Shown piece by piece: positions 3,001 through 31,523 of a DNA stretch of 32,000 nt (its first letter is position 1; each line of letters starts with the position of its first letter). The notes under the pieces are model-generated. The model ran no database searches. It was not told where the DNA came from and was given only the letters and a program-made list of their open reading frames with translations. Origin of the DNA: Armatimonadota bacterium (GTDB taxonomy: Bacteria; Armatimonadota; UBA5829; DTJY01); the NCBI GenBank assembly GCA_035528905.1, contig DATKXU010000002.1:56441-88440 (forward strand), written 5' to 3'. Made by a program: the position numbers and the translations under genes.

Positions 3001-3696
3001 AACGCTCAGACCGTCAGCCTAGCGACTGCTCACGCAAATGGCTGGGTTCGCGAGTATGCGTGGACGTATGATCCAAGTATCAGGAACTACAAGCTCGTTG
3101 ATGCAAACCGAGTGGGAGCGGACCGGACAATGCGCCCATGGCTCGGCTACTGGGTGAGAGCGTTGGTTGACTGCCAGCTAATAGTTCCGTCTCCTACAGG
3201 CGGGGGAATCGAGCCGCCGCCACCGCCGATGGGCGGGCAGCCCTTGGGTCTCTCTGAGCATGGGATAGAGGGTGCAGATACATACCGCCCGCGCGAGTGG
3301 ACAGTCCGCATGATCGCCACTAGCGGCGAACTGCAGGACAGCGCCTACTTCGGCCAGAGTTCCTCGAAGCCTGAGCGGATCGAGAGCCCGCCGTGTTTGG
3401 AGGGCTATGTGGATTTGTACTTCACCGATGATGAAAGGGACGGCATCTATGCGGCTGATGTGAGAGGCAGCCTGTATTCCGGCGATAGCTGGCAGCTCAG
3501 AGTGGCGACGGACAGCCCAGGCGATGTCCAGTTGACCTGGGAGGGCCTGGAAAGCGTGCCGGCGAACGCGCGGCTAACGCTCGTGGACGAGCAGAACGGC
3601 GTTTCTCTCGAGTTGGTCTCTGGCGGCTCTTATACGTTCGAGGCCCGCCAGGTTTACACCAGCAGATCATTCCGCATCCTCTTCGAGACAAAGTAG
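1..3696 (+). CDS. Giant secreted/cell-surface repeat protein, 5'-truncated by the window edge (1231 aa visible)
   Basis: Frame 1 is open from nt 1. GKEYVYSTRLDQSTDPYYHCFVAADA precedes the first Met at 88 and already shows the module-end motif. Stop at 3694-3696. At least five tandem ~95-180 aa modules share [FY]x[FY]xVxYxDx[DN]GDxP ... GxHx[YF][YH]FxAxD (approx nt 385-672, 727-1270, 1387-1692, 1717-2022, 2038-2322). These are followed by an Ig-like domain (~2350-2640), a GWNQIGYP / AYW-type domain, a PPPPPMGG linker and a beta-rich C-terminal domain. Confidence 0.85.
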   Translation, partial: GKEYVYSTRLDQSTDPYYHCFVAADASTAMAQYDATTSPSAHTIWEPVEVLSGSGKVYEFAHKPVVGNLSVPELPGMYTNPSIYVGGTLTTNVTIDLLQGTVTFASAPTGQVTAKYWFGVQGPDEVVANTPPALTLGKVVPTTGSSTTLFTFSVRYTDTDGLKGQAPEYSRLILDGRAEALTSKAGSYKEGVTYEAQMNLANGVHKFYFEASDGAGYAVFDAGTPSSRSSGAPIAPITPITGPYVNDRPILSNGLVTPNNPLGHSTAQQFVYTVKYRDDSGDAPDAGYPVVYVDNASETAYDGTVTAIGATAITDDSQNWTVDQFKGMPMQFTSAGPKATYQVFTIGSNTSNTLTILTSDLVDEFGVKVGDEFSIGKLIMTKVDADDSDYLGPGGVDYQAIVPGLGVSVGLLPNDVHTAHFRSNTKEILVGPTDAATRDTTLRFPAASELQGPKVSIQAPAGNEPPTLSNASHTPSRGTASTVFTFKVTYADPDGDAPTVDPINKVEGFVRVLIDGAPHAMTPPASPDYTAGAEFTYSSTLSPGKRNYHFEASDGWAAVRLPVSGELTVTVNYPPALGEPSITPVRGNTGMSYVYSVKYVDLNNDAPTSVKVVIDGQETDITDCMVVVPGGTYATGVVYRYTLPGGSLTEGSHTYYFRAVDALEAATPTTQMDGPSIYSNSAPAFSEADVSPASGWNTDTYTYSVVYSDPDGDGPEYVKVYVDNADADVMVKDPNENDFVTGVTYRFQKQGLGPGSHTYYFKASDYLDTVRDPASGEYNGPIVTGRPTATITIRCSASPMVGQAAIISGTVSPAMAVPLTIKFTRPSGTKFERSVSSQANGSYSLSWTPELNGTWKISTAWAGGGDYLPSSSSELTVVVAGPSLTITGLHMISLPLQPSIGYPEGCFGRIPPFALAKWQPSSGAYKLYSLLPGYASDYDFPLIAAGQAYWIKTLEPKVIAPSGSLVSTTWSFSIPIEAGWNQIGYPFLQETVWGNLQVRYNAQTVSLATAHANGWVREYAWTYDPSIRNYKLVDANRVGADRTMRPWLGYWVRALVDCQLIVPSPTGGGIEPPPPPMGGQPLGLSEHGIEGADTYRPREWTVRMIATSGELQDSAYFGQSSSKPERIESPPCLEGYVDLYFTDDERDGIYAADVRGSLYSGDSWQLRVATDSPGDVQLTWEGLESVPANARLTLVDEQNGVSLELVSGGSYTFEARQVYTSRSFRILFETK

Positions 3697-3728
3697 GACG
3701 GGAGACAATTCCGAGAGGGGTGACATCC

Positions 3729-4538
3729 ATGCGCACAATGGTCAGATTCAGGACTGCCAAGTGGTTGGCTTGGTCTCTGGCCAGCACCGTACTGGTGCCA
3801 TACATGGCGAGCGGTGCTCTTGCAGCCTCCCAGGTCAGCGACGTCAAGCCGCAAACCATGGTCCTGTTTCCGTTAGATAAGGCGGCCACGGTGACCAAGT
3901 TACAGGTGGTCTCCGAGCTGAATGCTTTTCTTGGGCAGGGGCTGGCTTCATGCCCTAGGTACAGCGTCTTGGAGTACACGGAGCGTCTGCCCGCTGTGGA
4001 GCGCTTAGCGGCCATGCAGTCGGAGATGAAGCTGATAGCGGTGGGTCCGTTCTCACCCGACGACGCGGGCATCGCACACGCCGCCGTGCTCGCAAGAGCC
4101 ATATCAGCAGACCTGTTTCTCGTTGGGTCCGTGGAGAAGTACACCTTCGCCGACAGGGAGGGTGTAGCGGAGATAACGGCTACCGTTCGGTTGGTGGATA
4201 CGAAGACGGGGAAGGCTGTGCAGACTATCACGGTCACGGGGCGCGGTACGAAGCCATCTCCTACCGCGCCGGCGGGAGAGTCGAGCATTGCCTCTGAGGC
4301 TGTCAGGGACACGGGCAGGAAGGTCATCCAGGAGGTAACGGGCGAGGAATACAAAGAACGCGCAGTGCCACCTCCTATCGTGGCTGTGAGGAAAAAGAGC
4401 AGCAAGAAGTCGTGGATTCCGCTGTTGCTGCTGTCCCTTGGCGTTGGACTGCTGCTTGGAGGCTCGGGCGGCGGCGGTGATGGCGGTGGAGGCGGCGCCG
4501 ACCCCGTACCGGATCAGCCACCTCCCATACCGTTCTGA
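3729..4538 (+). CDS. Exported protein with a C-terminal TM anchor; paralog A of a tandem pair. The fold guess is TolB-N/CsgG/LpoB-like periplasmic alpha/beta domain.
   Basis: The ORF-track frame opens at 3720 (GTG), but ATG 3729 lies 9 nt after a GAGAGGGG SD. N-terminal signal-like segment WLAWSLASTVLVPYMASGALAAS. Central LFP...RYSV...GSVEKYTFADREGVAEITATVRLVDTKTGKAVQTITVTGRG pattern. C-terminal KKSSKKS + WIPLLLLSLGVGLLLGG helix, then a Gly/Pro tail ending in F. Confidence 0.75.
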   Translation: MRTMVRFRTAKWLAWSLASTVLVPYMASGALAASQVSDVKPQTMVLFPLDKAATVTKLQVVSELNAFLGQGLASCPRYSVLEYTERLPAVERLAAMQSEMKLIAVGPFSPDDAGIAHAAVLARAISADLFLVGSVEKYTFADREGVAEITATVRLVDTKTGKAVQTITVTGRGTKPSPTAPAGESSIASEAVRDTGRKVIQEVTGEEYKERAVPPPIVAVRKKSSKKSWIPLLLLSLGVGLLLGGSGGGGDGGGGGADPVPDQPPPIPF

Positions 4539-4625: not shown

Positions 4626-5363
4626 GTGAGGCCAATACTTACCGGAACCCGCATATGTCGGGTACTAGCTGTGACGTGTCTGCTGGTTTTCCAGTGTGCA
4701 CAGGCGCTAAATGCCGATGATGTCCTCCAGAAGGAATCGCTGGCACTTTTCCCCTTTGCAATAGGAAGTGACGTTGGAGCCTCGAAGCAGGAACTCATCC
4801 AGCAATGTGCCGGTGACCTGCTATTGCTCGTCAACGAAGGTCTGGCCGGGACGCGGCGTTACTCGGTCGTCCTATTCGACCCAAGAGCCGCTTCTGTGGA
4901 CCGAGCTGTGCGTGAGAAGCAGATCACCGAGAAGGAAATCGCACAGCCGATTGATACCGGAGTTCAAGGGGTCGCCAAGGCGCGGAAGCTAGCCACCCTG
5001 ATGGGCGCTAACTTGGCCATGATCGGTTCCATAGACCGATATGACTTCAACGAAAGGAAAGCCGAGGCCGAGTTGACCGTCACGCTGCAGTTGATAGACG
5101 CTAGGAGCGGCAGTTTCAGCACAATCACCGCGACAGGCAGAGCTGCGGCGGTTGAGGGGAAGACTGGGCAGGGGGAGGAGGCATTAGGAATCGGTGCGAC
5201 TTACGAAGTTGCGGAGAAGCTGCTGGCGGAGGTGACGGCTGCGAGCCTCACTCAGCCGACCAGCCCGGCGGTCCCGCAGCCATCACACTCCAAGAAGAAC
5301 CGAGGGTTGATCGCTGCCATGATCGGAGCCATCATAGTAGGCTTTGTGATCGGCAGCGGTTAA
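4626..5363 (+). CDS. Exported protein with a C-terminal TM anchor; paralog B of the tandem pair
   Basis: The same frame opens at GTG 4560. GTG 4626 follows an AGAGGAG SD (~10 nt) and gives the signal peptide RICRVLAVTCLLVFQCAQALNA. It aligns with paralog A: LFPF, RYSVV, GSIDRYDFNERKAEAELTVTLQLIDARSGSFSTITATGR. C-terminal HSKKNRG + LIAAMIGAIIVGFVIGSG. The start codon is uncertain (4560 or 4626). Confidence 0.75.
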   Translation: MRPILTGTRICRVLAVTCLLVFQCAQALNADDVLQKESLALFPFAIGSDVGASKQELIQQCAGDLLLLVNEGLAGTRRYSVVLFDPRAASVDRAVREKQITEKEIAQPIDTGVQGVAKARKLATLMGANLAMIGSIDRYDFNERKAEAELTVTLQLIDARSGSFSTITATGRAAAVEGKTGQGEEALGIGATYEVAEKLLAEVTAASLTQPTSPAVPQPSHSKKNRGLIAAMIGAIIVGFVIGSG

Positions 5364-5502: not shown

Positions 5503-7428
5503 ATGCGAACGAAGCTTTTGATTCCAGGTAGTCTGCTCCTGTTCTCCGCGATTCTGTGCCCTGCAGCATGCGACAGAGGTGTGGGGAGCATTGAGTTATC
5601 GGCGAATCCCAGCGCTATCCTTGCGGATGGTAAGAGCGTGTGTACCGTAACGGTTCAGGTCAGGGATAGAGAGGGAAGATTCGTCGCCGATGGCACAGAA
5701 GTGCGCGTCTCTGCATCGCTCGGCGTTATCGAAGAGTCCGGGTTGACCTCCGCTGGGGTCGCCCGGGTGAAGCTCGTGAGCGCGGATATTCCAGGCACCT
5801 GCGTGGTCACAGCTACCTGGGTCGAGGGACAAGCTGTAGCGCAGATCAACGTAGAATTCGGGGACGCCCCGTCTCTGCCTCAGGGCCCAGACTACTTGAC
5901 AGTGACTGCGGACAAGTATCTTGCCTACAGCGTGGACTACAAAGTGCTGGAAGCGCTGGGGAATGTGCGCATTCGTTGCCGCACACTGGATCTCGCGGCG
6001 GAGGAGGCTCAGATCAATCTTGAGCGGGGCAGGGTGGTTGCTAGAGGTGAGGGCCGAGCAAGCCCTATCCGCATCCGCACGACCGGCGGCGACGTGGTGG
6101 GGGACATGTTCGCTTGTGACCTGTCGGGGTCGGAGGGATTGCTTCTGTCGGCGGAGCGTGGCCGCGTTCAGAAGGTGAACGTCTCGAAGAGCATACCTGA
6201 GATCAGCGACCAAGAAGCTTCCTATATGCCCGAGGATATGAGCCTGCACGATCTCTCGGACAGCTCGATATTGGTGAAGGCCCGCGAGGCCACGGTCTTT
6301 CCGAACCAGAAGATTCAGTTCAAGAGGGCCAGCGTCTACGTTGATGGTAAGCGCGTGGTCTCCCTGCCGCTGTATGTGCTGTGGCTGACAGGCGCCGGGC
6401 CTGAGGAAGGACAATATGTCGGCTACAGCACCGGCGGTGTGACCCTTAACCTCCCTGTCTACTACTCGCTGAGTTCGTCGTCCAGCGGGGCGCTGTTGGT
6501 GAGGCACGGCGACAGTACGGGCTGGGGCGACTACGGCCAGAAACCTGGATGGTTCGTTGATCTGCGCCAGAAGTATTCTACAGAGCGTTCTGACGGTTCG
6601 CTCCTGCTCAGCCAGGTCACGAGGGCTGACTGGGGAGCCCACTTTTATCACAGCCAGGATTTGGGGAGGCAGACTCGCGGCTATGTCTACATGGATTACC
6701 CTTCCCATAGGGACTTCTTCGGCAGCGTCAGCATCAACAAATCGTTCGAGGCGTTTGACGTTGGCTTAAGTCTGGACAGGAGCGACCTGCAAGAAGGCGA
6801 AGACTCGACGAACGCCGACATCTTCATCCAGATGCGTGCAAGGCCGCTTGGCAAGTCACCGTTCCGATATACGCTCTCGACTAGGTCAGCATACTCTACA
6901 TATTCCGACATGAGGTACGAGGTAAAGGGCAACGTCTACTCCTCGCCGATTCGTCTGGCTGACAAGCTCTCGCTCAGGACTTCGCTCGGGCTCGGCTACC
7001 TGTGGGGCAGCCGGATATCCGGGCTGTCTACGTTGGGAGCGGCCGTCTTGGAATGGAGGATCTCCGAGTACAGTGGTTTTGGTCTCAGCTACCGATTTGC
7101 CGATAGAGCCAGTGTGTACACGTCGTACGCGGGCAAGCAAACCCTATCGGCGACCTGCGTCCTTAGCGATGGGAAGAAATGGCGGGCTTCCATCTATGCC
7201 ATAAAGGGGCTGGACTATCCGACGGCCAACGTGTTCGGTGATCTCACGTTCCGTTTGAGTCCAGACTGGCGATTCACAGTAAGCTCCACGTTCAATGAGA
7301 TAGTCGGCCGGTCATATAGAGACCTCGAGCTCTCTGTAGGGAAGATGGTCGGCAGCCGGGAGCTGATCGCTGTGTGGTCGCAGTCGCAGAGAAAGATCAT
7401 GTTCGAGTTGGGCTCCGGCGGCTTTTAG
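5503..7428 (+). CDS. Outer-membrane beta-barrel protein, LptD/OstA-like, with an extra N-terminal Big_1 (invasin/intimin-type) Ig domain
   Basis: Signal peptide MRTKLLIPGSLLLFSAILCPAAC. Big_1-like ANPSAILADGKSVCTVTVQVRDREGRFVADGTEVRVSASLG...GTCVVTA (~5587-5856). OstA_N-like LTVTADKYLAYSVDYKVLEALGNVRIRCRTLDLAAEEAQINLERGRVVARG (~5890-6150). The C-terminal half alternates hydrophobic residues, is rich in Y/S/G, and ends ...FELGSGGF (terminal Phe, the classic OMP signature). Confidence 0.6.
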   Translation: MRTKLLIPGSLLLFSAILCPAACDRGVGSIELSANPSAILADGKSVCTVTVQVRDREGRFVADGTEVRVSASLGVIEESGLTSAGVARVKLVSADIPGTCVVTATWVEGQAVAQINVEFGDAPSLPQGPDYLTVTADKYLAYSVDYKVLEALGNVRIRCRTLDLAAEEAQINLERGRVVARGEGRASPIRIRTTGGDVVGDMFACDLSGSEGLLLSAERGRVQKVNVSKSIPEISDQEASYMPEDMSLHDLSDSSILVKAREATVFPNQKIQFKRASVYVDGKRVVSLPLYVLWLTGAGPEEGQYVGYSTGGVTLNLPVYYSLSSSSSGALLVRHGDSTGWGDYGQKPGWFVDLRQKYSTERSDGSLLLSQVTRADWGAHFYHSQDLGRQTRGYVYMDYPSHRDFFGSVSINKSFEAFDVGLSLDRSDLQEGEDSTNADIFIQMRARPLGKSPFRYTLSTRSAYSTYSDMRYEVKGNVYSSPIRLADKLSLRTSLGLGYLWGSRISGLSTLGAAVLEWRISEYSGFGLSYRFADRASVYTSYAGKQTLSATCVLSDGKKWRASIYAIKGLDYPTANVFGDLTFRLSPDWRFTVSSTFNEIVGRSYRDLELSVGKMVGSRELIAVWSQSQRKIMFELGSGGF

Positions 7429-7512: not shown

Positions 7513-9498
7513 GTGGACGAGTTCAAACTGATCTCGGATTTCAAACCCAAGGGCGATCAACCCAAGGCTGTAGCACAACTAGTCGAGGGGGTCGATGCCG
7601 GATATCGGTTTCAGACGCTTCTGGGCGTGACCGGCTCCGGCAAGACCTTCACGATGGCAAACGTCATCCAGGCGGTGCAGAAGCCTGCGCTCGTGATCGC
7701 CCACAACAAGACGCTGGCGGCACAGCTATGCGGCGAGTTCCGCGAGTTCTTTCCGCAAAACGCGGTGGAGTACTTCGTCAGCTACTACGACTACTACCAG
7801 CCGGAAGCGTATATTCCCCGGACAGATACTTACATCGAGAAGGACACCTCAATCAACGACGAGATAGATCGCCTTCGCCACTCCGCGACTCAGGCGGTGC
7901 TGGAGCGGCGTGATGCCGTTGTTGTGGCAAGCGTCTCCTGCATTTATGGACTCGGTTCGCCCGCAGAGTACAGGCGGATCGTTCTGAGCTTTACTGAAGG
8001 TGAGACATACGACCGCGAGGAGGTTCTGCGCAGGCTGATTGACATGCAGTTCGGTCGGAATGATGTCGCGCTCCAGAGAGCTACATTCCGCGTCAAGGGC
8101 GACATCCTGGAGATTCAGCCGGCGGATGAGGAGATAGTCATACGCATCGAATTCTTCGGCGACACAGTCGAGCGGATCGCGGTGGTGGATCCGCTTACAG
8201 GCGAGGTATTGAGCCGACAGGAGGAACTTACGGTCTATCCAGGCAGTCACTACGTCACGTCTCCGGCAACGATGGAGCGCGGCCTGACCGAGATCGAGTG
8301 CGAGCTTCAGGAGCGCGTCGAGTACTTCCAGCGGCACGGGAAGCTGCTTGAAGCGCAAAGGATCGAGCAGCGGACAAAGTACGACATGGAGATGATGCGC
8401 GAGATCGGCTACTGCTCCGGCATCGAGAACTACTCGCGAATCCTGGACGGCCGTGCTCCCGGTGAACCGCCATTCTGCCTGCTGGACTATTTCCCGGACG
8501 ATTTTCTCATCATCATAGACGAGTCGCACCAAACAATCCCGCAACTCCACGCTATGTACGCCGGCGACAGGTCGCGCAAGGAGACATTGGTGGAGTTCGG
8601 CTTCAGGCTGCCGTCCGCTCTGGATAACCGCCCGCTTCGCTTTGAGGAGTTCATGGAGCGCATCAACCAGGTGGTGTTCGTCTCCGCGACGCCGGGTCCT
8701 TACGAGCTTGCCCACAGCAGCCAGGTTGCAGAGCAGATAATCCGCCCGACTGGATTGGTTGATCCGGAGGTGGAGATACGTCCACCGCAGGGCCAGATAG
8801 ACGACTTGATCAACGAGATAAAGCAGCGAACCGAGAAGGGCGACCGCGTGCTGGTCACCACGTTGACGAAGAAGATGGCGGAGGACTTGACCGAATACCT
8901 TGCCGACTTGGGCATCAAGGTGCAGTACCTGCACTCGGAGATTCACACCCTCGACCGGAACGAAATCCTCCGCGATCTGAGGCTCGGCGTCTACGACGTG
9001 GTCGTGGGCATAAACCTCCTGCGCGAAGGGCTGGACCTGCCTGAAGTCTCGCTTGTCGCTATTCTCGACGCCGACAAGGAGGGCTTCCTGCGCTCGGAGA
9101 CGGCGCTGATTCAGACGATCGGCCGCGCCGCACGCCACATTGACGGCAAAGTCCTCATGTACGCGGAGGATACGACCGGCTCGATGCACCGGGCGATCGA
9201 GGAGACCAACAGGCGCCGCCGGCTCCAAAGGGAGTTCAATGAGCAGCATGGCATCAAGCCCGCCTCCATTCAGAAGGCTGTGCGCGATGTCATCGAAGCC
9301 AAGAAGGTTGCTGAAAGCAAGAGCTACTACCGTGTACGCCCGTCGCCCGACGAAAACACGCCACTGGACCAGCTCATGTTCGTGCTCGCCGACCTTGAGA
9401 AGGAGATGAAACGCGCGGCCAAGGACCTCGACTTCGAGCACGCCGCCGAGGTAAGGGACGAGATCATCCGCCTCAAGAAGCTCCTGCCGACGAAGTAG
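7513..9498 (+). CDS. uvrB: Excinuclease ABC subunit B
   Basis: 661 aa with a GTG start. [17 protein letters not shown], Walker [13 protein letters not shown] box ([13 protein letters not shown]), helicase C motifs, C-terminal UVR domain ([16 protein letters not shown]). Confidence 0.97.
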
Positions 9499-9646
9499 GG
9501 GAGGGCGAAGCTCCTGCTGAGCCGTGCCTTCGTACACAGGGATGCACAGGATGGACAGGATAAATCCGGGACTAGCAGCCAACCCTTATGGAGTGCTGGT
9601 GGCATGCCTGCCCCGAAGTAAGCGGGAACACCGCTTCGCCCTCCCC
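9498..9646. repeat. Dispersed-repeat hairpin: 14-bp perfect inverted repeat GGGGAGGGCGAAGC / GCTTCGCCCTCCCC enclosing 121 nt
   Basis: The left arm at 9498-9511 overlaps the last base of the uvrB stop codon. The right arm is at 9633-9646. The left arm extends to the 26-nt unit at 9499-9524, which recurs inverted at 17325-17350. The loop contains three tandem 9-10-nt units (cacagggatg/cacaggatg/gacaggata, 9535-9562). Confidence 0.85.
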
Positions 9647-9684
9647 TCTGTGCCTCCGTGGTGCAAATCCGGCCCTGAATTCTG

Positions 9685-12706: not shown

Positions 12707-14545
12707 ATGGAAGCAGCGCTTCGAGAAAAGCTCAAGCATCTGCCCGATAAGCCGGGCGTATATATGATGAAAGACGTGCGCGGAGAGGTGCTCTACGTCG
12801 GAAAGGCATCCTCTCTGCGCAGTCGGGTCCGCTCGTATTTCCAGAAGGGGCGAACGCATCAGCCGAAACTGCTGATCATGATGCCTAAGGTGAATGACGT
12901 AGACTGGCTTGTGACGGGCAGCGAGCTCGAGGCGCTCATGCTCGAGTGCAACCTCATCAAGCAGCACCATCCGCGCTACAACGTATGCCTCCGCGATGAC
13001 AAGCATTACCCATACCTCTGCGTGACAACTTCCGAGCCGTTCCCGCGCGTCCTGGTAGTCCGCCGCGTCAAGCAGGACGGGAACAGGTATTTCGGCCCTT
13101 ATGGCGATTCCTCAGCCATGCGGGAGAGTCTGCGGCTTATCAGAAGGGTCTTCAGGATCAGGGGCTGCAACAAGAAGCTCACTGGGGAGGAGCGCGATCG
13201 CCCCTGTCTGAATTTCCACCTCGGCCAGTGCGAATCGCCGTGCTCGGGCCGGATCGCCCAGGACGCGTATAGGGCATTGGTCCGGGATACGTGTTCCTTC
13301 CTGGAAGGGCGGGGAGAATCCCTCGTGGCCTCTCTCGAAAAGGAGATGGGGGCGGCGGCCGAGGCGCTTGAGTTCGAGAGAGCAGCCCGCCTTAGGGATC
13401 AGACCTGGTCGCTGCGCAAGCTCGTCGAGCGGCAGAAGGCGATCAGCACCGACCAGACAGACCGGGATATAGTATCCGCCAGCGTCGAGGGCGATTCGGC
13501 GTGCGTGCAGTTGCTGTTCGTGCGCTCAGGAAGGCTCATCGGGGAGGAGCGCTTCTTCCTCGACGGCGTGACCGACGAGGGCGCCGAGGCCGGCCTCGTG
13601 GGGTTCATCAAGCAGTACTACCGCGATGCCGCATACGTGCCGAAGGAAATCCTGGTGTCGCACGCGCTTCCGGAAAGGGCCATCCTGGAGGAGTGGCTGT
13701 CGCTCAGGCGGGGATCGAGGGTCAGGCTGATGCACCCGAAGCGCGGCGTTAAGCGCCGGCTGGTGGATATGGCGATCGAGAATGCTGCACTGGCTGCCGA
13801 GCGCGAGCGGAGTCAAGAAGCTGAGGCTGAAGCATGCGCAGACCTGCAGGCTCTCGCGCAGGCCCTCGGCCTCCCTGAGCCCCCGTCGCGGATCGAGGCG
13901 TACGACATCTCGAACATCCAGGGGCGTGAGGCGGTCGGCTCGATGGTGGTCTTCCAGCGCGGGCTGCCGGCGAAGTCGCAGTATCGGCGGTTCAAGATTC
14001 GTGCGGCCGAGCAGCCGGATGACTATGGGATGATCCGCGAGGTGTTACTGCGGAGGCTGGCACGGACTGCTGCCGGCGACCCCAAATTCGCCGCTCTGCC
14101 CGATCTTGTCCTGATAGACGGGGGTAGGGGACAGTTGAACGCAGCGCTGGACGCGCTGCGACCCGTTAGCCGTCAGCAGTTAGCCGCTAGCTCCGAAATC
14201 CGAATTGTGTCGTTGGCAAAGCGGCTGGAGGAGATTTACACGCCTGAATCGAGCAAGCCGCTTCTGCTCCCGTTGGATTCCCCTGCGCTCAGGCTGCTGC
14301 AGAGGATACGCGACGAGGCGCACCGCTTCGCCCTGGCCTACCACCGGAAGCTCCGCGTGAAGGCGGCGAAGAAGTCCGTGCTCGACGGCATCCCCGGAAT
14401 AGGCGATCAGCGCCGGAAGGCCCTCATCCGCAGGTTCGGCTCCCTCGCCGGCGTCCGCAGAGCTTCCCTCGAAGAGCTTCTCACCGTCCCCGGCATGACA
14501 CGGCCGGCTGCAGAGACAGTGTACGAGGCGTTGCATGGGGAGTAG
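12707..14545 (+). CDS. uvrC: Excinuclease ABC subunit C
   Basis: 612 aa. GIY-YIG N-terminus (PGVYMMKDVRGEVLYVGKASSLRSRVRSYF), UVR domain (FERAARLRDQ), endonuclease V-like region (IEAYDISN), C-terminal (HhH)2 (IPGIGDQRRKALIRRFGSL). It carries an in-frame repeat-derived segment at 14165-14205. Confidence 0.97.
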   Translation: MEAALREKLKHLPDKPGVYMMKDVRGEVLYVGKASSLRSRVRSYFQKGRTHQPKLLIMMPKVNDVDWLVTGSELEALMLECNLIKQHHPRYNVCLRDDKHYPYLCVTTSEPFPRVLVVRRVKQDGNRYFGPYGDSSAMRESLRLIRRVFRIRGCNKKLTGEERDRPCLNFHLGQCESPCSGRIAQDAYRALVRDTCSFLEGRGESLVASLEKEMGAAAEALEFERAARLRDQTWSLRKLVERQKAISTDQTDRDIVSASVEGDSACVQLLFVRSGRLIGEERFFLDGVTDEGAEAGLVGFIKQYYRDAAYVPKEILVSHALPERAILEEWLSLRRGSRVRLMHPKRGVKRRLVDMAIENAALAAERERSQEAEAEACADLQALAQALGLPEPPSRIEAYDISNIQGREAVGSMVVFQRGLPAKSQYRRFKIRAAEQPDDYGMIREVLLRRLARTAAGDPKFAALPDLVLIDGGRGQLNAALDALRPVSRQQLAASSEIRIVSLAKRLEEIYTPESSKPLLLPLDSPALRLLQRIRDEAHRFALAYHRKLRVKAAKKSVLDGIPGIGDQRRKALIRRFGSLAGVRRASLEELLTVPGMTRPAAETVYEALHGE

Positions 14546-16417: not shown

Positions 16418-17042
16418 CGCAGTCTCCCCCTACCGAAACGTCCAATGTGGCAGAATTGGCAGCATCAGCGGCAAAGTACGGCTGCCTGCTTAATAGGGAG
16501 CCAAACTTTCGTTTTACTCTCCTGATTATGTTTTGCGGAGATTCGCCGCTAGGATAGCCTGCGTATGCTACCGCACCAACTGGCGAATATCCCGTGGAAT
16601 AAGCCCTCAGAAACTTCTGCTCCCGAATATCCATCTGCGTAAGTGCTGTTGTTACCGCTGCGACCCGTTCTGTCCGGTCTAAGCATTCCCATGGGTCTGG
16701 GGCATCCGAGGCAATATCAATTCCTTCTTCCCTCATAGCCTCAAGCGAACCCACAGTAGGGCGCTTCTCTTTGCGCTGGATATAACGTTTCCGCCTGTCT
16801 TCAGCTTTCAGCCAAACGAAGGATTTTATATTTTGTGTGCCGGATGGATCCCACTTCTTCAGGTCTAGGTACACACGGCGTAGCGTCTCCATACACTCAT
16901 CCTCTAGGTCCATGGGGTCTACTGTTTTGCTTAGGCGACGCTTAATAAGTTGTAGAGCCTGCTCTGCGAAGAGCGCCCACGTTTGAGGATCACCTGCGCG
17001 TAAGCGTTCTAGGCTGGCCATATCCCAATCGGCAACTCCCAT
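16410..17042 (-). CDS. Sigma-70/ECF-like protein (regions 2 and 4 recognisable), first gene of the island operon
   Basis: 210 aa. Region-2-like LRAGDPQTWALF...LEDECMETLRRVYLDLKKWDP...SFVWLKAEDRRKRYIQRKEKR. Region-4-like ALTQMDIREQKFLRAYSTGYSP...IIRRVKRKF. GAGGA SD 5 nt upstream. 8-nt overlap with the next gene. Confidence 0.6.
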   Translation of the reverse strand: MGVADWDMASLERLRAGDPQTWALFAEQALQLIKRRLSKTVDPMDLEDECMETLRRVYLDLKKWDPSGTQNIKSFVWLKAEDRRKRYIQRKEKRPTVGSLEAMREEGIDIASDAPDPWECLDRTERVAAVTTALTQMDIREQKFLRAYSTGYSPVGAVAYAGYPSGESPQNIIRRVKRKFGSLLSRQPYFAADAANSATLDVSVGGDCDE

Positions 17043-17077
17043 CGTATCCTCACAATCCGCCTCCCGTTTCTTGCCCT

Positions 17078-17106
17078 ATATACTTACCTACCGACTTTCG
17101 CCCAAT
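17078..17106 (-). promoter_or_regulatory. Candidate sigma-70-type promoter for the island operon (TTGGGC-17-TATATA on the minus strand)
   Basis: Read on the minus strand: TTGGGC (17101-17106), a 17-nt spacer, TATATA (17078-17083), ~35 nt upstream of the ATG at 17042. Confidence 0.4.
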
Positions 17107-17290
17107 CTGCCATCACAGGCGGGTTTTTCATGGGTACATGCGATGATATAGCAACCTTACTGGAGCGCAGACCAATTCTACGCTTTTCTGAAGGGTCTTG
17201 TAAAGCGCGGCTCAGCGTTAATCCGCAGGTGCCGCGCTACCGCATCACCGGCCCAGCACTCCATCACTCCTCACGAATCACGCTCGGAGT

Positions 17291-17350
17291 GGGAGGGCGA
17301 TCCGCCGCGGCCAATCCGTCGAACCGGCTCAGCAGGAGCTTCGCCCTCCC
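17291..17350. repeat. Second copy of the GGGAGGGCGA.../...TCGCCCTCCC hairpin repeat
   Basis: GGGAGGGCGA (17291-17300) pairs with TCGCCCTCCC (17341-17350). 17325-17350 (cggctcagcaggagcttcgccctccc) is the exact reverse complement of 9499-9524 (26/26). Confidence 0.9.
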
Positions 17351-17395
17351 GAATGCCCTGTTTAAACAATCCCATCCGGCATTTAGCATCCAGCC

Positions 17396-17586
17396 GTCAG
17401 CAGTTAGCCGTCAGCAGTTAGCCGCCAGCAGTTGGCATCGAGCATCTAGTATCCAGTATCCAGCATCCAGTATCGCTCAACACTCAACACTCCACACTCA
17501 ACTCTTTTCACTCCTCACTCCTCACTCCTCACTCGTCACGATCCACGAGCACGAGTAAGAGTACGAGTAGGATTCACGAGTACGAG
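17396..17586. repeat. Mosaic of five different short tandem-repeat blocks (14, 7, 7, 7 and 6-nt units)
   Basis: gtcagcagttagcc x2 plus a degenerate third copy (17396-17437). tatccag-type x4 (17450-17476). tcaacac-type x4 (17477-17504). cactcct x4 (17509-17536). NAcgag hexamers x7 (17544-17586). It ends with the box cacgatccacgagcacgagtaagagta (17537-17563). Confidence 0.9.
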
Positions 17587-17619
17587 GGCGCTTTGTGCGT
17601 GCAGAGGCCCGGCCTTTCG

Positions 17620-17628
17620 TGCTATAAT
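17620..17628 (+). promoter_or_regulatory. Extended -10 promoter element TGCTATAAT for ogt (near-leaderless)
   Basis: TGc + TATAAT at 17620-17628. The ATG at 17639 is 10 nt downstream and has no SD. Confidence 0.5.
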
Positions 17629-17638
17629 AGGCCCGGAC

Positions 17639-18139
17639 ATGGCGGGCGTATACTACGTTTTCGAGACCCGGCTCGGGTGGGTCGGCATCGCGGGCGCCGA
17701 TGGAGGAATCCAACGCCTGGTACTGCCTTTGCCCAGCAAGCGCCAGGCTGAAAAGGCCGTCAAGGAAGGAATGCGGGAGCAACTCGTGGAATCAAAGCAT
17801 GACTTCTCCGGCGAGGCGGCGCGGCTTCGAGCGTATTTCCGCGGCGAGCGGGTAAAGTTCAAGTGTGAAGTAGATGCAGCGGGTTCGAGCGCCTTCGACC
17901 GGCGGGTCTGGGCCGCCGCGCGCGAGATCGGATACGGGCGGGTTGAGACTTATGGGTGGATCGCGGCGCGGATCGGACAGCCTCACGCGGCGAGGGCGGT
18001 CGGCCAGGCGCTCGGCAGGAACCCGGTGCCGATAATCGTGCCCTGCCACCGGGTCATTCGCTCGGATGGGCGCTTGGGCGGCTTCAGCGCCGGCCTTGAA
18101 TGGAAGATCAGACTGCTGGATATGGAAAAACACGCTTAG
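17639..18139 (+). CDS. ogt: Methylated-DNA--protein-cysteine methyltransferase
   Basis: 166 aa. Active-site PCHRVI (IIVPCHRVIRSDGRLGGFSAG). YGWIAARIGQPHAARAVGQALGRNP DNA-binding wing. Confidence 0.92.
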   Translation: MAGVYYVFETRLGWVGIAGADGGIQRLVLPLPSKRQAEKAVKEGMREQLVESKHDFSGEAARLRAYFRGERVKFKCEVDAAGSSAFDRRVWAAAREIGYGRVETYGWIAARIGQPHAARAVGQALGRNPVPIIVPCHRVIRSDGRLGGFSAGLEWKIRLLDMEKHA

Positions 18140-18151
18140 GGGCGGCTCAGC

Positions 18152-18517
18152 ATGAAGGGTTTGCTGATCAGGTGGGTCGTCAGCGCCATCGCGCTGTACG
18201 CGACCGCTCTTTTGGCAAACATGCTGCACATCGGTATCAAGGTTGGTGGAGCGGGCTCGGCTTTGGTGGTGGTCGTCGCGCTGGCGATCGTAAATGCGCT
18301 GATCCGGCCGCTGGTCATAGCCCTGACGCTGCCGCTGAACTGCCTGACCCTGGGCTTGCTGACTTTCGTGATAAACGCGCTGATGTTCTGGCTGGTGGGA
18401 AGCGGATGGCTCCGGGGATTCAAGGTTGAAGGCTTCTGGGCGGCGATGTTCGGCTCGGTCATGATGGGGATCATATCCGGGCTGGCGAACAGCCTGATCG
18501 GACCCAAGGAACAGTAG
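18152..18517 (+). CDS. DUF360 / phage-holin-4_2 family integral membrane protein
   Basis: 121 aa with four hydrophobic helices. Family-typical LIRWVVSAIALY...ALVVVVALAIVNALIRPLVIALTLPLNCLTLGLLTFVINALMFWLV...GFKVEGFW. Confidence 0.8.
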   Translation: MKGLLIRWVVSAIALYATALLANMLHIGIKVGGAGSALVVVVALAIVNALIRPLVIALTLPLNCLTLGLLTFVINALMFWLVGSGWLRGFKVEGFWAAMFGSVMMGIISGLANSLIGPKEQ

Positions 18518-18528
18518 CGGGGAAACAG

Positions 18529-18717
18529 GTGTGGGAGTGTGGGGGTGACTGCGAGACGGGGAGAAATGGAGAACATCCAATCCGCCGCGGCGGAAAAGTC
18601 CAACGCTCAACGTCCAACTTCGAACTCCCAACCTGCAACCTGAAACTCGGAACCTGGAACCCTGGATCCCTTCCCTTGCGTAATACGCATCACGATCCAT
18701 GAGCACGAGTAGGAGTA
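18529..18717. repeat. Second mosaic of short tandem-repeat blocks, ending in the same 27-nt box as 17537-17563
   Basis: gtgtggga/gtgtgggg (18529-18544). 14-nt perfect palindrome tccgccgcggcgga (18581-18594). tcNaac-type units (18598-18632). aacctgc/aacctga/aactcgg/aacctgg/aaccctgg (18630-18665). Box cacgatccatgagcacgagtaggagta (18691-18717), 25/27 identical to 17537-17563. Its AGGAG serves as the rapZ SD. Confidence 0.85.
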
Positions 18718-18720
18718 GAA

Positions 18721-19581
18721 ATGCAACTTGTGATCGTCACAGGCATGTCCGGCGCGGGCAAGACGCTCGCAATCCGGGCGTTCGAGGACCTCGGCTTCTT
18801 CTGTGTGGACAACTTGCCACCGAAGCTCCTGCCTGATCTGAGGAAGCTTTGCGAGCGCAGTGAGGCGAAGAACGAGAACATAGCAGCCGTGGTTGATGTC
18901 CGCTCGGGAGAGCTGTTCGACGGACTCGTTCGGACATACCCGAAGATACGGGATGGGTACAAGCGCGCGCGGCTGCTATTCTTAGATGCATCCGATGAAG
19001 TGCTCATCCAGCGATTCAAGGAGACCAGGCGCCGGCATCCGCTGTTCGACCGTTGCCACGGGATACTCGACAGCATCGCCACCGAGCGCAAAATACTCGT
19101 AGACCTCAAGGAACTGGCCGACAAGGTCATTGATACGTCCGACCTCGATCCCGGCAAGCTCAAATCCGAAATCGTGACATACTTCGGCACCGACAGCGCC
19201 AATGCGGGGCTGATTATCACAGTTACCTCCTTCGGGTTCAAATATGGCTTGCCGCTGGATGCGGATATCGTACTCGACGTGCGATTCCTCATCAACCCGC
19301 ACTACGTCCAGGACTTCCGAACCTTCGACGGACGGGATCAGCCCGTCTATGAATACGTGATGAAGGATGCGAGAACTCGCGAGTTCATGCAGAAGCTCTA
19401 TGATCTTGTAGATTTCTCGCTGCCCCAGTACGAAAACGAGGGTAAAGCGTATTTGAACATCGCAATCGGGTGCACCGGCGGGCAGCACAGGTCGGTTGTG
19501 ATTGCGAACGAACTCGCGGACTTCTTGGAGCATAAGGGCTACCGCACCATAATCGAGCACCGCGATGTCACAAAGCGCTAG
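18721..19581 (+). CDS. rapZ: RNase adapter / nucleotide-binding protein RapZ (YvcJ family)
   Basis: 286 aa. MQLVIVTGMSGAGKTLAIRAFEDLGFFCVDNLPP, C-terminal IAIGCTGGQHRSV. Confidence 0.93.
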   Translation: MQLVIVTGMSGAGKTLAIRAFEDLGFFCVDNLPPKLLPDLRKLCERSEAKNENIAAVVDVRSGELFDGLVRTYPKIRDGYKRARLLFLDASDEVLIQRFKETRRRHPLFDRCHGILDSIATERKILVDLKELADKVIDTSDLDPGKLKSEIVTYFGTDSANAGLIITVTSFGFKYGLPLDADIVLDVRFLINPHYVQDFRTFDGRDQPVYEYVMKDARTREFMQKLYDLVDFSLPQYENEGKAYLNIAIGCTGGQHRSVVIANELADFLEHKGYRTIIEHRDVTKR

Positions 19582-25122: not shown

Positions 25123-25149
25123 TTGGCACTCGTTCACGGCGAGTGCTAG
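25123..25149 (+). promoter_or_regulatory. CIRCE operator (HrcA-binding inverted repeat) upstream of groES
   Basis: TTGGCACTC-N9-GAGTGCTAG, compared with the consensus TTAGCACTC-N9-GAGTGCTAA. It lies 34 nt upstream of the groES start. Confidence 0.9.
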
Positions 25150-27105: not shown

Positions 27106-27200
27106 TCCGACGCAGACGAGCGCAAGAAGAACTTCCGTCGTGGGGAGAAAGGACAAAGCGAGAGCATGCTATTGAGGTGCTCCCCAGAATCAGTACCACC

Positions 27201-27406
27201 TGAAGTGTGAGGATCCGGTAAGATAGACAAGGAGGATTCTTGCATGAAGGGTAAGCGGTATACGGAAGAGCACATCATCAACATGCTGAGGGAGTCGGCT
27301 TCGGATACTGACGGTCCTAGATGAGTACACGAGGGAGAGCCTGGCGATAGGGGTAGGCCGATCGGTGTCGGCGCAGTTCTTGTTTATGAGCTCAGGCAAG
27401 AACTGA
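27201..27406 (+). mobile_element. IS3-family insertion-sequence relic: left end, a 26-aa OrfA stub and a frame-shifted 29-aa OrfB fragment
   Basis: TGAAGTG... at 27201 resembles IS3-family terminal repeats. ATG 27244 encodes MKGKRYTEEHIINMLRES (OrfA HTH N-terminus) and is stopped at 27322. In another frame, 27317-27406 encodes LDEYTRESLAIGVGRSVSA (the DDE-core region motif xDxxxREcLAI). Most of the element is deleted, and I found no right inverted repeat. Confidence 0.7.
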
Positions 27407-27414
27407 CTGCGAGT

Positions 27415-27648
27415 GTGGTGTTTGCCAGAAAGCCTGACCTGCGGGAGATCGACCGTATCCTGAAGGGGCTCGGCATAACAAGTAAGGCGGTTCGAGACAT
27501 TATCCATCGCGAAATCTGGAAGGGACACTACACGCTTGAGGAGATCGAGGAAATAGCTGAGGATATAGGTAAGTTGATCACTAAAGGCGGTAAGCCACAC
27601 CCAGAAGGAGGAGAGCCAGAAAACCCAGATGGAGGAGGAGAAGAATAG
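27415..27648 (+). CDS. Hypothetical 77-aa protein, possibly the C-terminal remnant of a gene truncated by the IS
   Basis: GTG start with no clear SD. The frame is open upstream into the IS relic. KPDLREIDRILKGLGITSKAVRDIIHREIWKGHYTLEEIEEIAEDIGK plus an acidic Gly/Pro/Glu tail. Codon pattern looks coding. Confidence 0.4.
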   Translation: MVFARKPDLREIDRILKGLGITSKAVRDIIHREIWKGHYTLEEIEEIAEDIGKLITKGGKPHPEGGEPENPDGGGEE

Positions 27649-27720
27649 CCCATGTCTTCCATAGTGGTACCACCATACTAGTAGATTCTTGCTCGGCCGT
27701 ACACGTGCATCTGGTAAATC

Positions 27721-28152
27721 ATGTCTACGATCAATCAGGACGAACTCAGAGCGGCGCTCGATATGGCTATCAATGGCAAGCTTGTTGTCCAGAACTGGCT
27801 GGGTTATGCCAATGTTCTTTTTCTCGGCTTCGGCGATGAAGTTCTGCCGCGTGTCCCGGCTGGTGAGAGCCCCGCTTGGTCCCCGTATGAGCTGGAGACG
27901 AATTACGCCGACTGGTCTGTTGAGAATGAAAAGGGGATTGTTGGCACAGCAGATGATGAGCGCGCAAAGGCGCTGGCGGCTGTTGAACTTCTTGTCGGCC
28001 ACCGTGCAACCGGCTGGGCTTTTGGAGACACGCTATTCTGCTTGGTCGTCTATTTTGAAGGTGGATTTAAACTCAAGATCACCCCTATGGCGGACGCATT
28101 GACCGACGAGGAAATCCTGCGCAGGAATGGCGGGTTTGGAAGCGACAACTAG
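27721..28152 (+). CDS. Hypothetical 143-aa cytoplasmic protein (immunity-protein-like small beta-rich pattern)
   Basis: Chosen over the overlapping Arg/Ser-rich 27689 frame. Two-part pattern NGKLVVQNWLGYANVLFLGFGD...YELETNYADWSVE ... LLVGHRATGWAFGDTLFCLVVYFEGGFKLKITP. Weak SD. Confidence 0.55.
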   Translation: MSTINQDELRAALDMAINGKLVVQNWLGYANVLFLGFGDEVLPRVPAGESPAWSPYELETNYADWSVENEKGIVGTADDERAKALAAVELLVGHRATGWAFGDTLFCLVVYFEGGFKLKITPMADALTDEEILRRNGGFGSDN

Positions 28153-29957: not shown

Positions 29958-31523
29958 ATGGAATTTGGTGTCGTTATGGCTGCTTTGAACAAGTTCCGCG
30001 AGCACGCTGTTGTAATTGACTTTGGGGCGCAGTACAGCCAACTGATCGCGCGGCGGATACGCGAGTGCCGCGTTTATTCGGAGATCCTACCGCACGATGT
30101 TACCGCGAAGGAGATCGAGGCTCGGCGGCCTGCGGGAATAGTGTTGTCGGGCGGCCCGGCAAGCGTCTACGAGCCAGGCGCGCCCAAGATGGACACCCGC
30201 ATCCTCGAGCTTGGTATACCGATACTGGGCATCTGCTATGGAATGCAGATCATGGCTCATGCGCTGGGCGGTCGCGTCGAGCCGGGCCGGAAGCGGGAGT
30301 ACGGGAAGGCAGAACTCGAAGTGCTGAACCCGGATGAGTTGTTTTCCGGTTTGGACCGCCATCTGGTCGGCTGGATGAGTCATGGAGATTCGGTCCTGGA
30401 ACCGCCTCCTGGTTTCCGGATCCTGGCTCGCACTGCAAACACGGGCGTAGCCGCGATGTCGGATGGAGAGAGACACCTGTACGGGGTGCAGTTCCATCCA
30501 GAAGTTGTCCATACGCCTCGGGGCAAGGAGATACTTGAGAACTTTCTATATAGAGCCTGCGGGTGCAGCGCGTCGTGGACGATGAAGTCCTTCATTGAGA
30601 AGGCTACAGAGAGTATCAGGCAGCAAGTGGGCAACGGATCGGTAGTTTGCGGCCTGAGTGGGGGAGTGGACTCCGCCTGCGTCGCCACGCTTGTTCATCG
30701 CGCGGTCGGCGACCATCTTAGCTGCATCTTTGTGAACAACGGCTTGCTTCGAAAAGGCGAGCCGGAGATGGTTCAGAGAACCTTTCGCGACGTGTTCAAG
30801 ATGCGGTTGGTATACGTAGATGCGCAGGACCGGTTCCTGGAGAAACTGCGCGGTGTGAGTGACCCGGAGCGGAAGAGGAACATTATCGGGGAGGAGTTCG
30901 TCAGAATATTTGAAGAAGAAGCTGCAAAACTCGGCAAAGCTCAATTCCTTGCACAAGGTACTATATACCCCGATGTAGTAGAGAGCGGCACAGGCTGCGC
31001 AGCTAGGATCAAGACTCACCACAACGTAGGCGGCCTACCAGAGGACATGAAGTTGGAACTGGTGGAGCCACTACGGCAGCTCTTCAAGGATGAAGTGCGA
31101 GTGGTCTGTCACGAGCTGGGTCTGCCTGATGAGATCACCTGGCGACACCCATTTCCCGGTCCTGGTCTTGGAGTACGACTCGTCGGCGAGCTCACTAAAG
31201 AACGCCTGGACATGCTGCGGGAAGCCGACGCAATCGTCGTGGAAGAGATAAAGGCATCCGGACTCTACCGCGAGTTGTGGCAGACCTTTGCGATTCTTCT
31301 TCCCGTGCAATGCGTTGGAGTGATGGGTGACCAGCGAACTTATGCAAGCCCTGTTGTCCTGAGGGCGGTGACGAGCGAAGATGCGATGACCGCTGATTGG
31401 GCCAGGCTGCCTTATGACTTGCTCGAGCGCATCAGCAACCGCATAATCAACGAGGTCCACGGTGTAAACCGCGTCCTGTACGATGTGAGTTCAAAGCCTC
31501 CTTCAACCATCGAATGGGAGTAG
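29958..31523 (+). CDS. guaA: GMP synthase (glutamine-hydrolysing)
   Basis: 521 aa. The alternative ATG 29976 gives [30 protein letters not shown]. GATase motif GICYGMQ, ATP-PPase SGGVDS, C-terminal PPSTIEWE. Confidence 0.96.

Follow-up and report, generated by a model that had tools for sequence, protein, structure and literature searches.

A 32,000-nt stretch of DNA from an Armatimonadota metagenome genome (contig DATKXU010000002.1, hereafter the window) contains two non-coding regions, upstream of ogt and of rapZ, that are built from chains of different short tandem repeats. We refer to them as mosaic 1 (locus 1) and mosaic 2 (locus 2). Pfam scans place uvrB, uvrA and uvrC on the + strand in the 5' part of the window, followed by three minus-strand genes, including one for an M78/IrrE-like peptidase, and a 596-nt gap. 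Beyond this gap lie ogt (17639-18139), a gene for a PF04020 membrane protein (18152-18517), a second gap of 203 nt, rapZ (18721-19581), yvcK/CofD, a further gap, and then pgk, tpi, DUF72, groES and groEL.

Around 40 kb of sequence from the window species was examined, together with 2.37 Mb of comparison loci fetched from databases and labelled L001, L002 and so on. The window is matched at 99.9% by contigs in ENA, Logan and JGI assemblies. L001 and L002 come from the window species and span both mosaics, L096 and L225 represent a sister species, and the closest RapZ relatives, both as loci and as named proteins, are Armatimonadota metagenome-assembled genomes; some 70 RapZ relatives fall at 70-86% identity.

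Composition of the two mosaics

An earlier reading of this DNA from its letters alone (the sequence-only reading) had described mosaic 1 as a head-to-tail chain of five micro-repeat blocks. Tandem Repeats Finder (TRF) bears this out, resolving the chain at 17385-17586 into five short-period arrays (Table 1). Such arrays occur far above chance as judged by 60 dinucleotide shuffles of the window: there are 23 in the window (shuffle mean 4.5, maximum 13), nine of them score at least 43 (shuffle mean 0.15), and the densest 250 nt has 195 nt of array coverage (shuffle mean 27, maximum 55). Mosaic 2 was said to have the same architecture, and its arrays are indeed real and the architecture shared, but they are weaker than those of mosaic 1 and span 18529-18671.

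Table 1. Window positions of the repeat, palindrome and promoter features, with hairpins of other loci given under their locus labels
Feature	Position	Strand	Basis or remark
Longer member of the palindromic family, uvrB-uvrA gap	9499-9655	+	157 nt; 14-bp terminal inverted repeats GGGGAGGGCGAAGC / GCTTCGCCCTCCCC
In-frame 27-nt copy of the 14-mer array in the hypervariable loop of uvrC (12707-14545)	14165-14191	+	encodes VSRQQLAAS
Promoter-like site TTTACA-18-TAGAAT for the divergent minus-strand operon	17175-17204	-	consensus match only
Older flank (CCATCACT)n ... TCACTCCTCACGAATCACGCTCGGAGT	17253-17292	+	TRF array 17253-17274; repeat family D8
Decayed copy of dispersed palindromic element GGGAGGGCGA...TCGCCCTCCC	17293-17351	+	holds ATCCGCCGCGGC (17300-17311); inverted repeat I1
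Linker CCCTCCCGAATGCCCTGTTTAAACAATCCCA	17344-17374	+	28/31 nt match to post-palindrome sequence in sister species locus 2 (L096:435-465)
14-mer array (AGCCGTCAGCAGTT), 3 copies	17385-17433	+	TRF; repeat family D2
AGCCGTCAGCAGTT, 3.0 copies	17392-17433		TRF; 96% matches
Three heptamer blocks (GYATCNA)x6, (TCAACAC)x4, (TCACTCC)x5	17435-17543	+	TRF
ATCCAGT, 4.4 copies	17444-17474		TRF
CTCAACA, 3.9 copies	17476-17502		TRF
TCACTCC, 4.6 copies	17508-17539		TRF
Box 1 (17537-17563), then terminal CACGAKC/(GAGTAN)n array	17537-17590	+	ends at GAGTACGAGGGCG
ACGAGT, 6.8 copies	17545-17586		TRF
Putative extended -10 promoter of ogt, TGcTATAAT (17620-17628)	17620-17641	+	ATG at 17639, 10 nt downstream
Mosaic 2, spacer between PF04020 gene and rapZ	18518-18720	+	TRF; orthologous alignments
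GTGTGGGA, 2.4 copies	18529-18547		TRF
Degenerate palindrome core ATCCGCCGCGGCGGA	18580-18594		part of mosaic 2
CA-rich TCCAACG/AACCTGN units	18596-18671		part of mosaic 2
CAACCTG, 4.7 copies	18629-18661		TRF; 76% matches
GGAACCCT, 3.0 copies	18649-18671		TRF
Box 2, with Shine-Dalgarno AGGAG at 18711-18715	18691-18717	+	part of mosaic 2
Tandem-arm hairpins	L017:1857-1968, 2967-3072, 5250-5336, 8396-8468		form (U)n-loop-(reverse complement of U)n
Tandem-arm hairpins	L032:8223-8303; L014:2354-2429; L095:1608-1691, 8574-8650		7-9-nt units

The two mosaics share a 27-nt box, CACGATCCAYGAGCACGAGTARGAGTA, at 17537-17563 and 18691-18717, on the + strand in both cases. No third copy was found in the window even when 3 mismatches were allowed, and 100 shuffles gave an expectation of 0 matches. 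The similarity between the loci reaches 33 nt at 88% (repeat family D14). The shared box stands as claimed in its two copies, their common orientation and their excess over chance, but not as a unit separate from the repeat chain, being identical to the first units of the terminal 7/6-mer block (CACGATC CACGAGC ACGAGTA AGAGTA). Its placement just upstream of both genes was only partly upheld, since the orientation is the same but the gene-relative position is not. At locus 1, 75 nt separate the end of the box from the ogt ATG, and the ogt promoter lies downstream of the box, whereas box 2 does supply the rapZ Shine-Dalgarno sequence, with AGGAG inside it 5 nt 5' of the ATG at 18721. The 12-mer ATCCGCCGCGGC was likewise found at both loci where the sequence-only reading had placed it (17300-17311 and 18580-18591).

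Because the extended -10 element lies only 10 nt before the ogt ATG, the ogt mRNA of the window is probably leaderless and mosaic 1 would lie upstream of the promoter. The motif cTTTCnTGnTATAAT is unchanged in 5 species and stands upstream of ogt in L006, L097, L099, L103 and L225, and its distance to the ogt start codon is 9-15 nt in four relatives and ~30 nt in L006; a leaderless ogt mRNA is thereby suggested across this clade. Taken with the divergent promoter-like site, this places mosaic 1 between two divergent promoters, where it is probably not transcribed. No promoter is predicted inside mosaic 2, which is therefore probably a transcribed intercistronic spacer of 203 nt between PF04020 and rapZ, in which the ribosome-binding site of rapZ is located. 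In L001 a 1-nt deletion at window position 18135, just 5' of the ogt stop codon, gives an Ogt of 171 aa that overlaps the PF04020 gene.

Within 17441-17560, in the three heptamer blocks, there are 78 nt with a C/G ratio of 9, the most C-rich and G-poor + strand stretch of the window. A Rho-utilisation site would fit this composition, but no + strand transcript is predicted to enter the region and we regard the idea as speculative. A 142-aa open reading frame across mosaic 1 (17130-17558) we take to be spurious, as it has no Pfam match and a low-complexity translation that includes LSRSFALP, read from a palindrome arm.

Upstream of the chain, the older flank is similar to the TCACTCC block further on and to the beginning of box 1 (17264-17285 vs 17522-17543, 82%); the flank (17253-17292) can be aligned in L103 and L225. 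It is followed by a palindromic element of the form GGGAGGG...CCCTCCC (fold z = -1.6). An inverted and 100% identical copy of the 26-nt arm at 17325-17350 lies at 9499-9524, in the longer member of the family, which has an internal (CACAGGATG)x2.9 array, a 9-mer array, and a fold z of -3.8; the CACAGGATG unit is also found in L095. The palindrome is seen in the window (two copies), L225, L096, L103 and L093-L095, the last three being IMG/VR contigs that bear its arm, and a 25-mer of it is 100% identical in the window (twice), L225, L093, L094 and L095. The shared 12-mer is explained by this family, as core or arm of the dispersed palindrome lies at both loci; we identify ATCCGCCGCGGC as the putative core of the element, decayed in window locus 2 and longer in locus 1 (17293-17351). 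A mobile or decaying component, one of the roles put forward by the sequence-only reading, is thus present in the form of a dispersed palindrome with decayed copies. No clear target-site duplication is visible at the element at 9499-9655, and no RAYT (REP-associated tyrosine transposase, IS200/IS605-like) domain was found in the window open reading frames scanned (~88-27105). The composite mosaics themselves have flanking direct repeats, without terminal inverted repeats: GAGTACGAGGGCG, at the end of mosaic 1, is a near repeat of GAGTGGGAGGGCG at 17289-17301.

The 27-nt box does not serve as the signature of a wider family. A genome scan found it in none of the GTDB species genomes, a scan of JGI metagenomes gave three matches only, all unrelated chance matches in coding sequence, and the two sites of the window species are its sole occurrences in the 2.37 Mb of fetched loci. 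The linker gave no matches in a scan of IMG/VR. The flanking proteins encoded at 88-3696, 3720-4538 and 29958-31523 matched no record by which the genome could be extended; a further 7.8 kb gained 3' of the window (L086) holds no further mosaic. Literature text searches with the palindrome sequence or its peptide read-outs returned only norovirus primers, and a literature search found nothing on Armatimonadota repeats.

Orthologous loci in relatives

The order ogt-PF04020-rapZ is kept without mosaics in L006 (RapZ 69%), L099 and L103 (78%), and L101 and L102 (76%). In L006 the PF04020 gene lies 5 nt from rapZ, in L099 and L103 the two genes overlap or abut, and L101 and L102 have short unrelated spacers; at locus 1 of L103 only the palindrome is kept. 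In L006, L099 and L103 the rapZ ATG is preceded by GAGAGTAGGA(N)ATG or GGGAGTAGGGAGTAA, and it is this ancestral rapZ Shine-Dalgarno region that the 3' end of box 2 (GAGTAGGAGTA) resembles.

At locus 2 of L097 and L098 (RapZ 80%) we found (GTATGGGA)x4, a loop, (TACTCCA-like)x4, UUUUU and (CGAGTA)x3...GAGAGTAAGAAT ATG. In L097 this is a terminator-like hairpin with tandem-repeat arms (fold z = -3.9) followed by the hexamer tail, and the locus in the two genomes shows an earlier state of mosaic 2. At locus 1 both carry (GAGTAN)x5 ~20 nt upstream of the ogt -10 element.

The sister species (RapZ 86%, Ogt 87%) has an orthologue of mosaic 2 in both L096 and L225. In L096 it carries a perfect 40-nt palindrome, ATCCGGGAGGGAATCCGCCG/CGGCGGATTCCCTCCCGGAT, followed by GCCCTTTTTGAACAATCCCA; L225 has the long form of the palindrome, with an arm GGCTCAGCAGGAGCTTCGCCCTCCC identical to window 17326-17350. 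The two are 98.96% identical over 9.5 kb, and inside mosaic 2 they differ in the palindrome variant, in the number of AACYTGR units, which is fewer in one of them, and in one extra GAGTAT unit. These differences are direct evidence of rapid turnover in mosaic 2. Mosaic 1 is missing from L225, where GAGTGGGAGGGC is joined directly to ACGTGCAGAG and the promoter; relative to L225, GAGTGGGAGGGCG and GAGTACGAGGGCG enclose ~290 additional nt at locus 1 of the window.

In the sister species the position of the rapZ ATG reads ATA (L096:540-605 and L225:11180-11250) and gene calling starts rapZ within the (GAGTAN)n array, from which RapZ gains 12-16 residues (MSTSKSRSKAGI...). The gain of one unit between the sister strains changes this extension by 2 aa and keeps the frame.

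Window mosaic 1 aligns colinearly with mosaic 2 of the sister species (z = 7.5-8.1, or 5.9-7.5 against 7-mer block shuffles), and with mosaic 2 of the window at a z of ~4. These colinear alignments, together with the shared linker, indicate that the two window mosaics are paralogous composites. Furthermore, ATCCAYGAGC is found in both window boxes and is absent from the tails of L096 and L225; being specific to the window, it points to recent copying between the two window loci. A recent local duplication, an outcome that the sequence-only reading had listed against itself, is where the comparative data lead.

Related repeats in coding loops and hairpins

The same kind of mosaic occurs in frame inside permissive coding loops of uvrC, and of ogt in relatives. 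The uvrC copy of the 14-mer array in the window matches 17403-17429 of mosaic 1 at 26/27 nt (96%). It sits in a loop between LNAALDAL and IRIVSLAKR that ranges from 9 to ~85 aa in relatives, and in L103 (~85 aa) and L097 (~55 aa) this loop holds an in-frame micro-repeat chain and a G/C-rich self-complementary stretch. The ogt genes of L097 (6080-6260) and L098 carry an in-frame insertion with two copies of a hairpin (GTAGGGGCGACCCCCAGTGGTCGCCC) that resembles repetitive extragenic palindromic (REP) sequences, and the length that gene callers assign to it is 89 aa or 221 aa, depending on the assembly.

Hairpins with reverse-complementary tandem arms were found in L014, L017 (four), L032, L095 and L097 (two), and none in the Bacillota loci of the fetched set. 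Those of L014, L017, L032 and L095 are intercistronic, with icd, mdh and sucC among the neighbouring genes. Folding of four hairpins (two in L017, one in L095 and the one at L097 locus 2) gave z scores of -3.9 to -7.9, the three from L017 and L095 falling between -6.7 and -7.9. L095 has further micro-repeat chains and repeat-arm hairpins, one of which uses a ACAGGATG unit. Since mosaics build up at any site that tolerates insertions, the pattern fits a process of a mutational or selfish kind better than a dedicated function.

Several further observations were made on these loci. Palindrome arms lie within an apparent repetitive protein-coding region in L093 (8020-8105 and 11880-11985) and L094 (3380-3470), with NYFDQFD motifs about every 70 aa, and this may be another in-frame colonisation. 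L103 has a second REP-like hairpin family (GGGTAGGGATTCGGAAATCCCTACCC and GGAGGCGATTCGGAAATCGCCTCC), with several copies in intergenic gaps (4846-4900 and 6680-6806). In the window, an inverted repeat TTGGCACTC-N9-GAGTGCTAG at 25123-25149, upstream of groES and groEL, resembles CIRCE (controlling inverted repeat of chaperone expression), the operator consensus of HrcA. A short transposase-like open reading frame fragment lies at ~27245-27325. In the same part of the window (27190-27750, compared with L001, L002 and L086), two ENA contigs stop near 27700-27740, and L001 has a 6-nt deletion (27595-27600) beside a 24-nt tandem repeat (27599-27645). This repeat region is present twice in L086 (8121-8167 and 8793-8839), so that strains differ structurally here.

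Origin of the mosaics

With moderate confidence, we read the two regions as fast-evolving, dispensable non-coding composites that are paralogous to each other, rather than as a conserved regulatory device. Within a short span of evolution, blocks have appeared and disappeared, changed in size and been exchanged for others. That the mosaics are dispensable and lineage-specific is supported by relatives at 69-78% RapZ identity that lack them and from L225, which lacks mosaic 1. Each composite has four parts, in the same order at both loci: a small palindrome of the dispersed GGGAGGG...CCCTCCC family, whose core or arm gives the shared ATCCGCCGCGGC; a linker of ~31 nt; a core that would be the product of local slippage amplification of 6-14-nt seeds, as in the short tandemly repeated repetitive (STRR) arrays of cyanobacteria; and a CACGAKC/(GAGTAN)n tail. 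The tail of locus 2 may have grown from the ancestral rapZ Shine-Dalgarno region GAGTAGGAG, and recent copying from one locus to the other over a distance of 1.15 kb, whether as gene conversion or as duplication, would account for the near identity of the two boxes. As for mosaic 2, it probably derives from an intercistronic hairpin with tandem-repeat arms, a state that a relative still shows; the palindrome would have landed in it later, and decay would have followed. The proposed series would run from no spacer to a repeat-arm hairpin, then to palindrome insertion, and then to decay and paralogous copying.

A number of points weigh against this interpretation. Further copies of the box or of the composite may lie elsewhere in the genome of this species; four contigs, three from Logan and one from JGI, break off within mosaic 2 or shortly after it, as they might if this sequence had other genomic copies. 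Which way the copying ran, and that slippage was the mechanism, are inferences rather than observations, and consensus promoter matches are the sole basis for the transcription status of both mosaics. In addition, L097 (RapZ 80%) and the window each have (GAGTAN)n arrays of like orientation 5' of ogt and 5' of rapZ, and within each of these genomes the two arrays are closer to each other than to their orthologues. Selection on a shared binding site could be an alternative explanation for such concerted arrays.

The breaking of assemblies at mosaic 2 also agrees with a composite mobile element akin to MITEs (small transposable elements of the miniature inverted-repeat type), in which palindrome, linker, core and GAGTA tail would transpose as a whole and have further genomic copies. 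The colinearity of window locus 1 with locus 2 of the sister species, the near-identical direct repeats that bound the ~290-nt extra segment, and the 100% identity of the palindrome arm on several metagenomic contigs point the same way. We judge this explanation unlikely, however, because no further box or linker copies occur in GTDB, JGI, IMG/VR or the fetched loci, the whole unit is without terminal inverted repeats, no transposase adjoins it, and L225 looks as though it had undergone a microhomology deletion here, so that the flanking repeats would need no transposition to account for them. Distinctly unlikely, in our view, is a functional cis-element in which an oligomeric regulator able to bind RNA or DNA would recognise (GAGTAN)n and coordinate ogt-PF04020 with rapZ-yvcK, much as TRAP acts at GAG/UAG triplet repeats and HutP at UAG repeats. 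Across the rapZ-region and window-species loci, GAGTAN arrays of at least 3 units occur only 5' of ogt and rapZ and always on the + strand (in the window, L096, L097 and L098), the two arrays of each genome evolve in concert, and GAG recurs with a 6-nt period, which speaks for such a regulator. Yet there is no array at locus 1 of L225, nor at either locus of L006, L099, L101, L102 and L103; its distance to the ogt -10 element varies (~20 nt in L097 vs ~35 nt in the window); at locus 1 it lies upstream of a probably leaderless promoter and hence outside the mRNA; and in L096 and L225 it has been turned into the coding N-terminus of RapZ. (GAGTAN)4 is moreover a common generic hexamer repeat with at least 120 IMG/VR matches, which makes that scan uninformative. 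A conserved protein-binding array, as the sequence-only reading had considered, is also at odds with the absence of mosaic 1 from the sister species.

We consider it very unlikely that the mosaics act today as structured RNA, that is, as stem-loops with tandem-repeat arms serving as terminator, attenuator or mRNA stabiliser. The idea draws on the hairpins of relatives described above, the U-tract after the L097 hairpin, a terminator at the L097 orthologous site, a terminator-like form in L096 and the L096 palindrome followed by GCCCUUUUUG. In the window, neither mosaic folds better than its shuffles on the + strand (z = -0.6 for both), terminator prediction gave no site within them, Rfam gave no gathering-score match in the window and none with E up to 5 in 16900-18800, and mosaic 1 is probably not transcribed. 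A minus-strand hairpin of mosaic 1, in which blocks pair via G.U, reached z = -3.05 against plain shuffles but only the 11th percentile in energy (p ~0.11) against a tandem-preserving null of unit-permuted blocks, and we rejected it. The structured leader suggested earlier is not supported. Phase-variable contingency loci, where gain or loss of units would switch or tune ogt and rapZ expression within populations, seem to us extremely unlikely. One GAGTAT unit and AACYTGR unit numbers do differ between sister-species strains that are ~99% identical, so that part of the proposed unit-number polymorphism is seen there, but not within the window species: each mosaic has one and the same length in the three assemblies that span both (the window, L001 and L002), and three Logan contigs over the 3' part of mosaic 2 are identical to the window. 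The arrays are also short (7 units or fewer) and imperfect, those of locus 1 lie outside the promoter hexamers, and the hexamer changes in the coding extension preserve the reading frame.

Dispensable, paralogous composites thus remain the reading that we prefer. Tentatively, and as a rather doubtful extension, the mosaics may be products of an undescribed active sequence-generating process in some Armatimonadota, by which palindrome-seeded mosaics colonise permissive sites and swap patches. If so, intergenic gaps and, in frame, surface loops of UvrC and Ogt would be colonised, templated copying, through template switching or short-tract conversion, would exchange patches of 26-33 nt between loci separated by a few kb, and spacer, Shine-Dalgarno and coding sequence would be made de novo, as in the N-terminal RapZ extension of the sister species. 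Patch copying, if confirmed, would point to a specific mutational mechanism. In practical terms, mosaics of this kind break metagenome assemblies and shift gene-start calls (RapZ of 286, 298 or 302 aa; Ogt of 89 to 221 aa), and their annotation as regulatory RNA or CRISPR-like arrays is unwarranted. As a compact case that can be dated, they illustrate the rise of spacers, ribosome-binding sites and short coding extensions by slippage and small palindromes.

Comparison with known repeat classes

Held against the criteria for CRISPR (clustered regularly interspaced short palindromic repeats), an intrinsic terminator, an Rfam family and a contingency locus, the window mosaics agree with none. The sequence-only reading was right to set CRISPR aside, as the units are 6-14 nt and run head to tail without spacers, in contrast to identical 24-48-nt repeats with spacers of similar length, and right to reject a simple microsatellite. 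Its further statement that it recognised no described class goes too far: STRR arrays are a described analogue, and ATCCGCCGCGGC comes from a REP/MITE-like palindrome.

The palindrome is comparable to REP sequences and bacterial interspersed mosaic elements (BIMEs), REPINs and small MITEs in being short, G+C-rich and intergenic and near-identical at unrelated loci and genomes, but the micro-repeat cores and the GAGTA tail of the window have no counterpart there. SPRITE, BOX and RUP clusters of pneumococcus and REP/REPIN elements cluster and insert into one another, and some are terminator-like (PMC10969869; PMC3116915). Rickettsia palindromic elements (RPEs) are selfish palindromes tolerated in frame in the genes of housekeeping proteins (PMC10969869). 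In-frame repeat or self-complementary inserts in the uvrC loop (window, L097 and L103) and in ogt (L097 and L098) are similar, although RPEs are ~150 bp long with a conserved peptide, whereas the inserts here are 7-14-nt tandem chains and short self-complementary stretches with no conserved peptide. A possible parallel are the small dispersed repeats (SDRs) of Nostoc described by Elhai et al. 2008, which are reportedly palindromic repeats of 21-27 nt that appear to insert into hairpin or tandem-repeat contexts already present; their sequences are unrelated to those of the window.

Reportedly, STRR sequences comprise a few unit families reused genome-wide, a description said to go back to Mazel 1990. 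In ~40 kb of the window species genome only the 14-mer (in uvrC) and the GAGTA tail recur, and units differ between blocks. STRR arrays of filamentous cyanobacteria consist of tandem 7-bp units and can form hairpins between the genes of operons; their role is unsettled, transcript stability or translational coupling having been proposed (PMC2670836). The Armatimonadota arrays differ in their host, which is not a heterocyst-forming cyanobacterium, in units of 6-14 nt that change from block to block, with several unrelated blocks chained head to tail, and in also occurring in frame inside coding loops. The window mosaics do not form hairpins of the STRR type (z = -0.6; structured null p = 0.11), the complementary arm having been lost. 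In common with STRR arrays are the tandem units of ~7 bp in non-coding DNA, the window having three heptamer blocks besides its 6-, 8- and 14-mers (TRF), and the hairpins of its relatives L017, L097, L095, L032 and L014. The closest known kinds are cyanobacterial STRR arrays and REP/MITE-like palindromes, family membership not being established, and an STRR-type phenomenon would extend from cyanobacteria into Armatimonadota.

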